DNA from: Narcine bancroftii
Taxonomy: Eukaryota
Direction of reading: 5' to 3'
Assembly (NCBI RefSeq): GCF_036971445.1
Contig: NC_091482.1
Coordinates: 2,108,001-2,172,000 of the forward strand
DNA: 64,000 nucleotides
Every line of letters begins with the position of its first letter. Position 1 is the stretch's first letter. The notes beneath the pieces are model-generated. The model searched no databases. It was not told the DNA's origin and was given only the letters and a program-made list of their open reading frames with translations. Both the position numbers and the translations under genes were made by a program. Shown here one piece after another: positions 6,090 to 31,652 of the stretch.

Positions 6090-7110
6090 CCTGCTCTGGG
6101 ATCTTGCTGTGCCTAGGTGCTGCCACTGTGACACGAAGGGGCGGGGTCCTGGGGGGTGACCCAGGGGTCAGGGCTGGAGCCTCACAGCTGGTTGCTCCGG
6201 GGGAAAAGTCCCGGGCCGATCGGGGGCGGGGCCAGGCCCAGGGGGCGGGGCCAAGGTCAGGGAGACATGGAGGCGGTGGGCGAGTGGATCCGCCACCGTT
6301 TCCCGGCGGTGAAGAACCTCGCTCGGACGCGGTGGAGCAGCTGCTGCGGGAGGAGCGGGAGCAGCTGCGGCTGTTGGTGAGGGGGTGAGGGGGTGGGGTC
6401 CGGGGAGGGGGCTTCCCTGGGGCATCCGGACCTGTCTCTTCACCCCCCCATCCCGTCCCTCTTCTCCCATCCCCCCCCCTCGTGCCTGTGTTCCCGCCTC
6501 GCCCATCCACTGGCCGAGGTCGGAGGGAGGGGGGGGGGGGGGGGGGGGAGGGAGAAACAGGGATTCTTCCCCAGACACAAACATTGATCTGGGGGTCAGG
6601 AAGAAATTCTATGAACCTTGTTCATCATCTGACTCAGGAGTCCATTCGGGCCCATCGACTCTGCTGGCTCAGTGACCCTGTTGCCTCATTGGCCCACGGA
6701 CTCCCTGTTACCATTCACCCTCACACCATTCCCCCACCCACTACTCTCTGAGGGGGGGGAGAAAGAGAAAACCGAGCCCCTGGGGAGGGCGGGGACTGAG
6801 ACGGTCCCAGGGAGAACGTGGCAAACTCCATACAGAGGGTGCAGGGTAACACCCATCTCACTCTGGCTGCAGGACGTCCGGAGTCCAGCTGAATATGAAG
6901 TCAGTCACTTGGAGGGAGCCATCCGCGTTGACCCGGAGACCAGTGACATGGAGCAGTTGGTCAACGAGCTGGGACTGGCAGGTAGGGACCACTGAACCCA
7001 CCCACCCCCTGGGGTTAGTCCGTCAGCTCACCCCTCCCTGTCTGGGTATCCCAGGGTCACCCAACCCCAATGATGGCACCAGGCCAGATCTGGGCATCTC
7101 CGGCTCCTGA
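6090..7110 (+). repeat. Left arm of the inverted repeat (partner 13030-13960)
   Basis: Reverse-complement homology; the core 6774-7069 versus 13066-13358 differs at only ~4 positions. Confidence 0.9.
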
Positions 7111-7129
7111 CCAGAAGTCCAGCAGACAG

Positions 7130-27681: not shown

Positions 27682-30600
27682 ATGAACGGCATTATCTGGT
27701 GGATCCAGAACAGATTCCAGTCCGTCCAACACTTGGGTTCGGACCTTCTGTCCCAGCACCTGGCACAGGATCGGAACCAAGTGGTGTTGCTGGTGAGTGG
27801 CACAAGGGCACGTTCCACTCCCCCCCCCCCCCCCACCTCCAACAGCATCCTCCAGCCTGCTTCACGGCACTGGGGGGATGGGGTAAAATGGTAGCGGCAG
27901 AGACTGGGGTGGTTGGGCGGACAGGTTCGGGGATTGCCAGGGGACACAGGGATGGTGGGAAAGGAGAGGGGAGGGTGGGGGGATATCGGAGGAGAGACCA
28001 GATCCTGGCAGAGACGTCATTCAGTGACACCTTGCTGGGGGCTGGGAGGAGAGGCTTTGCGAGATATGGACAGGACGTGAATGGGCAAGGACAAGGCAGA
28101 GGTGCATCTCCCCATATTGGTGGAAAGTATTTGAAAAAGTGAGAATGTAAATGGTCAGGAGGGAACAAGGGGCTGCAAACAACTGGGAAAGGGAAGAGGA
28201 CAGAGGGGTGGGGTGGGGGGAGGGAGGGGGACGGGGAGGTAGGAGGAAGTGCGAGGACGAGGAAGGTGTAGGAAGGGGAGCACAGGCTGACAGGTGAGTA
28301 CCAATGGGGTGGGCTAGAAGAGAGCTGTGGTGCTGGGGCAGAGGGGGAAGCTGTGATCTTGGATGTGGATTATTCTGTCTGACCCCAGCCTCATTTAAAC
28401 TGCAGCCCCTGGGTCACCCTCCTGGACCCGGCTATGATGACTGGGGCAAAGGTGCTGGAAGGACCTTTCAAATTGCAGGGGAAATTGCCAACCTGGTGAT
28501 TTAAGGGGGAATGCACCCCTGCATTGACAAGTCACGTACTTACCGGAAGTACTGCTTGATGTTCGGGTGTTGGCTGGCTGGTGACACATGCACACAAGTG
28601 ATGAGGTCACCAGAATAAGCAGGTCGGCCATTTTCCTTTTTAAATCGCCCATGGACATGACCCAGGTAAATTTAACTGGGTTCCCTGACAACCTCTGAGG
28701 TTGGTCAGGGACCATTTGTGCTCTGTTGGGGTTGACTGGGTCTGACCCTTTCTAACTGCCGTGTAACTAGGGCACTAACAGGGAAAATTGCCCTGCTAAC
28801 CCCATTTTACACAGCAGGTTGAAAGGTCCTGGTGAGACGTCCCCTCGGCGGGCAGGTCCCCTTTCTCTCTGGATTGACATGCTCCAATTTACGGTTCTCG
28901 TTGTTTTGCACCTTGAACGAATATACTCTTCTACACGTTGTCTACAGTCCAAATGTGTTTATTTTCTCCCCCTTGCTCGCAACACCTTGTGACAGACACA
29001 CATTCCTAATCAAATCGCGGACTGCCTCTCCTGTCAAACACCTTCATGAGACCGACCAAGTTACCCATATGTATTCCCGAGACTGACGACTTTTCTCGGT
29101 TCAGTGTTCCCCTTCTCACTGGCAGATGGGTCCTGTTCCTGTCCGATCCACTGTCCATCTCCATCTCGCCAGGGAGATACATCCCACACCTCAAGTTCAA
29201 GGATATTGTCACGTGCACAAGATGCAGTGAAAAAACTTCATCATGTGAGCAGACCAGGAGCAGAAATAGGCCATTCAGCCCATTGAGTCTGCCCCACCAC
29301 TTAACCACGAGCTGATCTATTTCCACACTGCCCAGCCTTCTCCCCATAACCTTTATTCCCCTGGCTAATCAAGAACCTGTCAATCTCTGGCTTAAATACA
29401 CCCAATGACCCGGCCTCCAGAACTGCCTGTGCCAACAAATTCCACAGATTCACCACCCTCTGGCTGAATAAATTTCTCTGCGTCTCTGTTCTAAGTGATG
29501 CCCTTCAATCCTGAAATTGTGCCCTCTTGTCCTGGACTCTCCCACCGTGGGAAACAACCTTTCTATATTTACTCTGTCCATGCCTTTCAACATTCAAAAT
29601 GTTTCAGTGAGATTTCTCCTCAATCTCCTAAGTTCCAACGAGTTTAGACCAAGAGCCGTCAAATACTCTTCATATGATAACCCTTTCATTCTTGGAATCA
29701 TCCTTGTGAACCCCCTCTGAACCCTCTCCAACACCAGCACATCCTTTCTTAAACAAGGAGCCCAAAACTGATCACAATTCTCCACCTGAGGTCTCACCAG
29801 GGCCTTATAAACCCTCAACATCTCATACAAAGTACAAGTAAAAGATGGTTGAGTTACAAGGAAAGGTTAAACAAGTTAGGACTTTATTCTCTTGAGAGTA
29901 GAAGAATGAGAGGAGATTTGATCGAGGTATTTAAAATTATGAGGGGGACAGAGTAAATGTAGGTTGGCTTTTTCCACTGAGGGGAGGTGAAATACAAACC
30001 AGAGGACACAGGTTAAGGGTGAAAGGGGAAAGGTTTAAGGGGGAACTTCTTCACACAGAGAGTGGTGGGGGTGTGGAATGAGCTGCCAGCTGATGTGGGC
30101 TTAATTTTAACTGAGAAGTATTTGGACAGGTACAAGGATGGGAAGGGTACAGAGGGCTATGGACTAGGTGCAGGCCACTGGGACTAGGAAGGATAGACTA
30201 GAAGTGCTGAATGGCCCATTTCTGTGCTGTAACATTCTATGGAGCAACAGTAATATGAGTGAAATATATTTGGGAGTGATTCAGGGATCTGATAACAGCA
30301 GGAACAAAACTGGGTGAAACACGAAAGTCTGCAGATGTTGCAATAAAAACACACAGAAAAGGTGCAGAAACTTGGCCAGTCTTTTCAGTGTCCATAGGAG
30401 ACAAAAATCTATTGCTGACATCCCCTCACCCACTCCCTCCCTCCTCACCCACTCCCTCCCTCCCTTCGTACCATCCCATTCTGCACTCCCTCAGTCCGCA
30501 CCATCTCCTCACCCACTCCCTCCCATCCCACACTCTCTCCCTCCTCACCATTCCCTCACCCACTCCCTCCCTCCCTCTGCCCCGTCCCATCCCGCACTTT

Positions 30601-31652
30601 CTCTGTCCGCACTGTCCCCTCACCCACTCCCTCCCTCTGCACCGTCCCCTCACCCACTCCTGGGCAGAGGCAACCAGCAAACCTAATCCTTGAACCTCTC
30701 TTCTCACTCTGGCCGCAGGACGTTCGGAGTCTGGCAGAATATGAAGTCAGTCACTTGGAGGGAGCCATCCATGTTGACCCAGAGACCAGTGACATGGAGC
30801 AGTTGGTCAACGAGCTGGGACTGGCAGGTAGGAATCCCCCCCTCCCCCGTCTGGGTATCCGCTGTTCTCCCCCTTCCCTCCTCCCCCCACATGGACAGGG
30901 TGGGGGTTGGGGGGGTTGCAGGGTGCGGTTGAGCAGAGTTGGGGAATTTGAAGAAGGGGGTGAGGTGAGGGGGTACAGAGATTTGGAGAAGGGGGGTGAG
31001 GGGATGGGGGGGCCAAGCATGAGGAGGATGGGTTGGGATGAGGGGGCTGGTGAAGGGGAGGAGGGGGGTGATGTCAGGGAGATGAGGTTGGAGGGGTGAG
31101 GGAGATAGATGGAGAGAGGGAGGGGTGGCAGACGTGAGGTAGGGGAGCAGGAGATGGAGGAATGGGAAAGGTGAGACGTCAGAATGAGGAGGGGGTAGTG
31201 AGATGGTGGGAGCTGAGTGTGTTCTACTGGGCAGGATCAGTGAGATGGGATGGAGAGGGGGTCTGTGTGAGGGGAGCTGAGGTTGTTCTCACCCCGTCCT
31301 CCACCAGATGCCCTCAACCAGAAGCCCCCCTGACCAGACACCTCCCACCCCCCCTGGGCCAGTAGCCCCCTCAACCAGACGCACCTGATCGCCCCTCTCT
31401 CCAACAGGCAGAGCGGCAAACAGCCAGGTGGTGTGTTACTGTACAGTGGGCTATCGTTCGTGCATGCTGGCAAAGCGCCTAGCACCCTTCCTGCCGTCCC
31501 TGAGGGTCTACAATCTGGAGGGTGGGCTGGTGAAGTGGGCCAATGAGAGGAGGTCCATTGTGGACAGCAGAGAGCAGCCCACCCGACTTGTACACCCCTA
31601 CAGCAGCACCTGGACCTACCTCCTGAAGCCAGCATTCCGGGCACAGATCTGA
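27682..31652 (+). CDS. Rhodanese-like domain protein, copy C (154 aa); exons 27682-27792, 30719-30827, 31408-31652
   Basis: Intact spliced ORF (111+109+245 nt): MNGIIWWIQNRFQSVQHLGSDLLSQHLAQDRNQVVLL|DVRSLAEYEVSHLEGAIHVDP..|GRAANSQVVCYCTVGYRSCMLAKRL..RVYNLEGGLVKWANE..LVHPYSSTW; canonical CxxGxR loop; AATAAA at 32318-32323. Confidence 0.88.
29245..29825 (-). mobile_element. CR1 3' portion
   Basis: YKALVRPQVENCDQFWAPCLRKDVLVLERVQRGFTRMIP. Confidence 0.85.
29850..30240 (+). mobile_element. CR1 3' portion
   Basis: [28 protein letters not shown] sequence followed by 3'UTR. Confidence 0.8.

Follow-up and report, generated by a model that had tools for sequence, protein, structure and literature searches.

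Three Single-Domain Rhodanese Genes of an Unnamed Subfamily in Cartilaginous Fishes: Divergent Active-Site Loops and a Middle Exon Alike among Copies

Gene Structure and Splicing

The 64,000-nucleotide (nt) stretch of Narcine bancroftii DNA analyzed here (contig NC_091482.1, positions 2,108,001 to 2,172,000 of the forward strand; hereafter the window) carries three genes, which we call A, B, and C, that lie around MED31 and that each encode a single-domain rhodanese in three exons. A and C are on the plus strand and B is on the minus strand; all nine exons were verified, and exon delineation with six-frame motif searches places GT..AG introns at phases 0 and 1 in every copy. Exon 1 of A (6267..6376, +) opens with the ATG, exon 2 (6873..6981, +) encodes the motif DVR..EYEVSHLEGA, and exon 3 (9708..9970, +) encodes the active-site loop CTAGYH (9743-9760) followed by NLEGG..W, VHPY..W, and the stop codon. 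The exons of B run from 13701..13811 (exon 1, −) through 13153..13261 (exon 2, −) to 12619..12887 (exon 3, −), the last with the loop CSVGFH at 12855-12838 and a stop, and those of C occupy 27682..27792, 30719..30827, and 31408..31652 (all +), with the loop CTVGYR at 31443-31460, VHPY..W, and a stop in exon 3. The spliced open reading frames of B and C encode 162 and 154 amino acids (aa). A sequence-only reading of the window had described three genes with exons of 111, 109, and 245-269 nt and shared intron phases; the nine exons and the phases stand, with the correction that exon 1 of A measures 110 nt in the window and 111 nt in public contigs. The rhodanese motifs that it named are present in all three copies, the C-terminal VHPY of A and C being DHAF in B, where HPY is replaced by HAF. 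It had passed over the frameshift of A, the His-ended loops, and the exon-restricted homogenization described below.

Exon 3 of C is 100% identical to the corresponding part of database protein P0001, which is named Narcine bancroftii, and the whole of P0001 is the splice product of C. When the N. bancroftii genome was searched with exon 3 of C and 56 candidates were scored, exactly A, B, and C were recovered and no fourth copy was found. B corresponds to database protein P0184, a model with an 88-aa N-terminal extension that is open in frame and missing from most relatives; we regard this extension as a probable gene-model artifact. The B copies of Pristis, Hemitrygon, and Heterodontus keep the HPY that B of N. 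bancroftii has lost, and the latter sits on a long branch in exon 3.

In the window, the 110-nt exon 1 of A shifts the reading frame after codon 18. We compared contigs from four public sequencing runs over window positions 5900-14300, a stretch that holds A and B. Contigs of all four runs contain a G that is absent from the window between 6320 and 6321 (+), and two of them (X1 record 1, 5903-6397, and X8 record 25, 6282-6377) match A with no other difference. One-base differences from the public contigs also occur in G/C runs at 5917, 6042, 6320, 6442, 6697, 6751, and 6773, which suggests that the assembly contains indel errors over 5917-6773. Because the two contigs just named otherwise match exactly and such differences occur nearby, the most likely cause of the missing G is a fault of the assembly; A is then probably intact and encodes 160 aa. 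We considered A as a pseudogene, a status contradicted by the contigs of the four runs, though the extra G behind 6320 accounts for 12466 of 23495 depth in run X5, so that about half of that depth is without it.

No RNA holder is on record for the runs, and X4, X5, and X8 are only guessed to be RNA; we placed weight solely on contigs that bridge canonical introns and did not rank the genes by depth. Intron 2 of A is bridged at GT..AG by contigs of X4 and X8, intron 1 of B by X5, and intron 2 of B by X5 and X8, so that both introns flanking exon 2 of B are covered. No junction for intron 1 of A is among the contig joints listed. The spliced transcripts that the earlier reading called for are thus supported for A and B by runs guessed to be RNA, with C lying outside the stretch compared. 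A single X4 contig (12886-13700) joins exon 1 of B to exon 3; leaving out the 109 nt of exon 2 in this way would cause a frameshift.

Family Assignment and Fold

The Pfam Rhodanese profile (PF00581, gathering score 22.2) matches C with an E-value of 2.6e-15 (57.1 bits) and B with 3.5e-14 (53.5 bits), and exon 3 of A alone reaches 6.4e-6 (27 bits). The best NCBIfam model, by a wide margin, is NF045521, rhoda_near_glyco, matched over profile positions 22-138 of 144; three chondrichthyan proteins score 97.8, 96.0, and 93.4 bits against it, all below its cut-off of 145. Identity to proteins of Nostoc and other bacteria is about 40%. The AlphaFold2 model, with a predicted local distance difference test score of 96.1, matches known rhodaneses at about 20% identity, with the sulfurtransferase 1yt8_A first (Z 14.7, root-mean-square deviation (rmsd) 2.0, 109 aligned), followed by 6mxv_B (Z 14.0, rmsd 3.5, 120 aligned) and 3gk5_A (Z 13.8, rmsd 1.7, 100 aligned). 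The rhodanese fold and the kinship to an uncharacterized bacterial subfamily, both proposed from the letters of the window, are thereby borne out. A homodimer prediction for C scored 0.41 against a mark of 0.42 and was used neither for nor against binding.

The proteins share with NF045521 members the C-terminal HPY..W extension and a CSVGYR-type loop. They differ in that the ray genes have introns and are without the hydrophobic N-terminal leader of many bacterial members, in that the loops of A and B end in His, and in their setting: the ray genes neighbor an EGF-repeat (epidermal growth factor) gene, MED31, and an SLC13 gene, whereas a glycosyltransferase-type setting is found for 15 of 80 bacterial relatives.

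Several better known rhodaneses were set aside. TST and MPST are tandem two-domain proteins, whereas the present genes encode one domain in 154-162 aa. TSTD1, GlpE, PspE, and yeast RDL2 are likewise built from one rhodanese domain with a six-residue Cys loop, which in C ends in Arg, but the ray proteins add an N-terminal helix and a C-terminal HPY..W arm; the structural match to TSTD1 (6bev_B, Z 11.8, rmsd 2.5, 102 aligned) comes with 19% identity, and C gave no TSTD1 match at E 0.001. Two loci on another contig do match TSTD1 first, weakly (E 0.008 and 0.002). The MOCS3 domain is a weak profile match (3i2v, E 2.6e-5). Only the rhodanese segment is shared with the tRNA uridine(34) hydroxylase TrhO: NF001133 scores 37.1 bits against a cut-off of 170 over positions 113-207 of 229, and that label is an automatic transfer. 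Since TST/MPST-like exons (our reading of the translation) and TSTD1-like exons are located elsewhere in the ray genome, A, B, and C would be additional to the known rhodanese set. The exclusion of TST, MPST, TSTD1, and CDC25 made in the sequence-only reading therefore survives, on the grounds of a single domain, the missing TSTD1 match of C, and the lack of an HCX5R site, and its exclusion of MOCS3 is probably right.

On these sequence relationships, A, B, and C are assigned to an unnamed, ancient single-domain rhodanese subfamily whose database names are automatic. Labels such as "tRNA uridine(34) hydroxylase-like" and "MOCS3-like" appear to be wrong, and together with an apparent absence from the human, mouse, chicken, and zebrafish lineages they would have kept the subfamily hidden; its recognition adds a member to the sulfur-handling enzymes of vertebrates. 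A literature search, with subscription journals and supplements outside its reach, found nothing on this subfamily among the matches listed, and an identifier search returned bacterial papers on Alvin_2599 and none for five other identifiers. Rhodanese folds are familiar, and these proteins already stand in databases under automatic names; what appears to be new is the subfamily, its His-loop pair, and its exon-bounded concerted evolution.

Active-Site Loops and Age of the Triplication

The loop Cys is invariant in 53 of 53 aligned sequences and retained in every chondrichthyan copy. A six-residue loop that starts with Cys is described as the rhodanese sulfurtransferase signature in PMC8533005, where 13 solved rhodaneses have loops ending in Arg, Thr, or Ser and where the loop-end Arg of yeast RDL2 is required for sulfur uptake from thiosulfate. 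In N. bancroftii the loop of C ends in Arg, within this set of residues, and those of A and B end in His, outside it. Arg holds this position in 328 of 353 relatives; the others comprise 19 His, 1 Gln, 1 Tyr, and 4 fragments without a match. The 21 non-Arg loops belong to 20 named chondrichthyan A or B copies and one unnamed record that resembles them. As a control we used the His-loop exon of A as the query, and the loop ended in Arg in 146 of the 150 matches listed. C retains the ancestral Arg-ended loop.

Chondrichthyan loops fall into three classes, CT[AV]GYH for A, C[TS][VT]G[FY][HQY] for B, and CT[VL]GYR for C; from the chimaera to the rays, A keeps its His loop. Copies of all three classes are present in Callorhinchus, Heterodontus, Scyliorhinus torazame, Pristis, Hemitrygon, and N. 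bancroftii. Because chimaera, sharks, and rays share them, the class assignments place the triplication before the split of chimaeras and elasmobranchs, which dates to about 420 million years ago. The expansion, suggested earlier to be local, is thus not confined to this species.

Proposed Function and Its Alternatives

The loop, fold, and family placement together suggest that these proteins are small Cys-persulfide sulfurtransferases and that A and B are altered in specificity, a proposal to which we give a probability of about one-half. In this scheme thiosulfate, a persulfide, or a similar donor would load the loop Cys with sulfane sulfur, which would then go to a thiol acceptor, for instance glutathione or thioredoxin. 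C would be a persulfide-forming sulfurtransferase with the ancestral Arg loop, and in A and B, with loops ending in His, Gln, or Tyr, the preference for donor or acceptor has probably changed. We infer catalysis, substrates, and changed specificity from these features. TSTD1 and related enzymes, according to PMC11957799, supply sulfane sulfur to the glutathione and thioredoxin systems. The trio of sharks and rays offers a natural experiment on Arg versus His at the loop end, in small, easily expressed proteins with an identical middle third.

Several observations count against this assignment. The Leishmania As/Sb (arsenic/antimony) reductase ACR2 (2j6p) has the same fold at 15% identity, and its match to the model (Z 13.7, rmsd 2.2, 118 aligned) lies within one Z of the top, so that the fold does not separate the two functions. 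No close relative with a solved structure was found, the best profile match being 6mxv. Genes of the TST/MPST-like and TSTD1-like kinds are present at other places in the ray genome. A six-residue loop is also compatible with arsenate reduction, since PMC4251824 describes plant HAC1 as a rhodanese-like arsenate reductase without the HCX5R site, a site that the ray proteins do not have either. Finally, we examined 80 bacterial loci with flanks of up to 5 kb a side, and 15 of them adjoin genes of the arsenosugar pathway.

In a tentative alternative, which taken as a whole we hold to be possible but unlikely, the family handles arsenic or other metalloids, as a HAC1-like arsenate reductase or as an arsenic/selenium carrier, and was expanded in cartilaginous fishes; bacteria would use it in making arsenosugars and animals in detoxification. 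Sharks and rays carry high arsenic loads. The 15 bacterial loci have TIGR04283-like (7), TIGR04282-like (7), ArsM-like (4), and ArsS-like (3) genes and come from Cyanobacteria, Bacteroidota, Verrucomicrobia, and one alphaproteobacterium, and 17 of the 80 loci have DUF547. At one Flavobacteriaceae locus (L057, 3844-9611) the rhodanese stands amid all five kinds, ArsS-like, TIGR04282, arsenosugar ArsM, DUF547, and TIGR04283, and the NCBI model nearest to the family bears the name rhoda_near_glyco. At 65 of the 80 loci (43 of the 54 loci of at least 9 kb), however, all four core genes are missing; the positive loci are mutually related, and 15 of 80 is a raw count without a background rate. In the ray genome, where TIGR04282 and DUF547 were not searched, neither ArsS (TIGR04167) nor TIGR04283 was matched, although genes split into exons can be missed in such a search. 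Land reptiles, palaeognath birds, and platypus also keep the gene, and the loop has six residues rather than the form HCX5R. If the bacterial arsenosugar link did carry over, the ray genes would become candidates for arsenic handling in marine animals.

Slightly more doubtful is the idea that catalysis is minor and that an enzyme was recruited to serve, most of all in the case of A and B, as an abundant Cys-based redox buffer, a sensor, or a structural protein. A and B are without the near-invariant loop-end Arg, which yeast RDL2 needs for thiosulfate (PMC8533005), and B of N. bancroftii combines the loss of HPY and a long exon-3 branch with the one contig that skips exon 2. Yet every copy retains the loop Cys, and the conservation of the His loop of A from chimaera to rays suggests a defined active site. 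We give very little weight to a CDC25-like phosphatase: CDC25A (1c25_A) is a fold match (Z 12.5, rmsd 2.8, 125 aligned) with weak profile matches, but the loop is Cys-x4-Arg/His and not the seven-residue HCX5R.

Distribution and Origin

Profile searches were read from the best 120 of 1532 matches and, in a tetrapod-centered search, the best 120 of 977; they are word-seeded, missed some known shark proteins, and returned many unnamed rows. Among the matches listed are vertebrates ranging from chimaera, sharks, rays, and coelacanth through caecilian, salamanders, turtles, crocodile, lizards, and snakes to palaeognath birds (emu, ostrich, tinamou, and kiwi) and platypus, and other holozoans comprising amphioxus, molluscs, annelids, a nemertean, a brachiopod, crustaceans, a sea spider, corals, sponges, and the choanoflagellate Salpingoeca, together with many bacteria. 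No named teleost, frog, neognath bird, marsupial, or placental is among them, and the tetrapod-centered list reached down to 117 bits, under the weakest named vertebrate match (128). Losses in these five groups are accordingly rated as probable only, given the word seeding, the missed shark proteins, and the unnamed rows. The description of the family as unnamed and patchily distributed agrees with the automatic names and with this list.

Our tree contained 17 vertebrate, 20 invertebrate, 1 choanoflagellate, and 40 bacterial rows, the last being every second of the 80 best loci. It separates holozoans from bacteria with support of 99/97, with values of 100/97 for the vertebrate clade and 99/98 for that of the chondrichthyans. 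In a FastTree of 204 rows, from which 26 redundant and 29 too-short rows were left out, the vertebrates form a clade that resembles the species tree, and Salpingoeca falls on the bacterial side. The best reading of these trees is vertical descent within animals from a holozoan ancestor rather than a recent import from bacteria. Weighing against it, the invertebrate branch is weak (86/28), and the position of the vertebrates among holozoans is not fixed by the tree. The earlier description of the genes as bacterial-looking is thus apt in that there are bacterial relatives, but the family appears old in holozoans, and the phylogeny proposed at that time, with bacterial, invertebrate, and vertebrate rows, is firm at the holozoan-bacterial branch and weak at the invertebrate branch.

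Horizontal transfer from bacteria into cartilaginous fishes or an early vertebrate might be read from the roughly 40% identity to bacterial proteins, which is comparable to that with invertebrates, from the weak invertebrate monophyly, and from the patchy vertebrate distribution. We consider it highly improbable, because homologs occur in a choanoflagellate, sponges, cnidarians, lophotrochozoans, arthropods, amphioxus, coelacanth, and tetrapods and because all 38 holozoan rows fall on one side of the 99/97 branch, opposite 40 of the 80 closest bacterial loci.

Two features of the gene models were noted during these comparisons. The tetrapod orthologs P0185, P0187, and P0204 are extended at the N terminus by about 20 conserved aa, which are missing from chondrichthyan copies. 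In models from coelacanth, salamander, and two molluscs (P0023, P0197, P0054, and P0226), a break or the start falls immediately ahead of the D-x-R motif, a hint that the position of the first intron is common to groups beyond sharks.

Exon-Restricted Homogenization

The three exons of A, B, and C tell different histories. In the window, exon 2 of A and B is identical at 109 of 109 nt and that of C matches them at 102 of 109; exon 1 is alike in A and B (103 of 111 nt, 93%) and only 57-59% identical between these and C, and exon 3 stands at 54-62%. The similarity extends into the introns of A and B, where the tract of A (6649..7110, +), comprising exon 2 with its intron flanks, is 90.3% identical over 473 nt to 13485-13030 of B in inverted orientation. 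In C the tract (30702..30832, +) is limited to exon 2 with about 17 nt upstream and 5 nt downstream and is 93.9% identical over 131 nt to A and B. Silent sites follow the same division, since codons for residues shared by A and C are identical in 30 of 33 cases for exon 2, as against 15 of 37 for exon 3.

We extended the comparison to 35 sequences from 17 species, a set that excludes one isoform, a single Carcharodon copy, and two records without a name; nearest neighbors were counted for the 30 sequences from 12 species with at least two copies. The amino-acid identity of exon 2 is 0.92-0.94 between paralogs within a species and 0.71-0.72 between orthologs. For exon 2 the nearest neighbor comes from the same species in 28 of 30 cases, versus 0 of 30 for exon 3, where it belongs to the same paralog class in 28 of 30. 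The pattern was found in the peptides of 11 elasmobranch species, with DNA compared in N. bancroftii only. Approximately unbiased (AU) tests agree: exon 2 rejects a clade of all C copies (p 2e-5), and exon 3, with two truncated rows dropped, rejects within-species trios (p 1e-10 and 2e-31). Purifying selection is unsuited as the cause of the likeness of exon 2, as it would equally keep orthologs alike.

This incongruence points to long-running, exon-restricted gene conversion in sharks and rays. Two facts detract from that conclusion. The labels A, B, and C were set by the exon-3 loop, which makes the count of exon-3 neighbors by class partly circular, although the AU tests on trios are independent of the labels; and the chimaera is without homogenization of exon 2 (identity 0.61-0.72), while its A and B share exon 1. 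We infer both the mechanism and the selection on exon 3 from the pattern: conversion among neighboring copies would homogenize the interchangeable exon 2, together with exon 1 of A and B, and selection for distinct active sites would remove those conversions that reach the catalytic exon 3. That exon-2 identity is instead an assembly artifact, or the result of gene models sharing one exon, is hardly credible, for although exon-2 peptides (compared as peptides only) are identical across all copies in Pristis and Scyliorhinus torazame, the window holds three separate copies of exon 2, that of C differing at 7 nt, small differences between copies occur in Hemitrygon, Mustelus, Chiloscyllium, Cetorhinus, Rhinoraja, Heptranchias, and Heterodontus, and the pattern is repeated in the 11 elasmobranchs.

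Long-lived partial gene conversion, lasting just over 100 million years, is reported for the mammalian pairs BMP8A/B, DDX19A/B, and TUBG1/2 in PMC2720389. As described there, these too are neighboring duplicates with segments closer within than between species; the present case differs from them in its three genes, its older duplicates, a tract in C of about 130 nt that amounts to one exon, and the sparing of the catalytic exon. With a 109-nt exon homogenized in 11 elasmobranch species beside a distinct catalytic exon, this would be an unusually old and sharply bounded example. Homogenization of exon 2 also misleads trees built from whole proteins. In one unnamed record, P0174, exon 1 is of C type and exon 3 of A type, which may reflect a chimeric transcript, gene conversion, or a join made during assembly through the shared exon 2.

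A bolder combination of these elements, which we regard as more doubtful than either of the first two functional alternatives above, would make the genes an overlooked animal arsenic-handling family derived from a component of bacterial arsenosugar clusters. It would have been lost separately in therians, teleosts, frogs, and neognath birds, and in cartilaginous fishes would comprise one Arg-loop and two His-loop enzymes whose exon-2 surface has been held identical by selected conversion for hundreds of millions of years.

Neighboring Genes and Repeats

MED31 (16071..24113, −; Pfam Med31, E 7.5e-11 and 2.4e-8) has four exons and lies between B and C, head-to-head with C. Exons of an SLC13-family transporter, which we take to be SLC13A5, occupy approximately 33800..49900 (−; Pfam Na_sulph_symp, E 4.5e-6), tail-to-tail with C. 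Upstream of A, about 4 kb before the window, is the minus-strand EGF-repeat gene, SCARF/PEAR1-like by Pfam (L084, 5830-6327). A link by position to TXNDC17, considered from human gene order, was dropped: the match lies about 16 Mb away, and none was found in the 50 kb upstream.

Three tandem arrays accompany the genes: a 35-nt unit in 18 copies between A and B (10227-10856), a C-rich 56-nt unit in about 31 copies within a MED31 intron (16548-18235), and a GC-rich 30-nt unit in about 76 copies between the start of MED31 and C (24352-26700). Toward the end of the window, the region 54635-63614 holds decayed inverted copies resembling a long interspersed nuclear element (LINE; 54635-57841 versus 60301-63458, 72-81% identity), and a second inverted pair at 44335-45196 and 52535-53420 is 90% identical.

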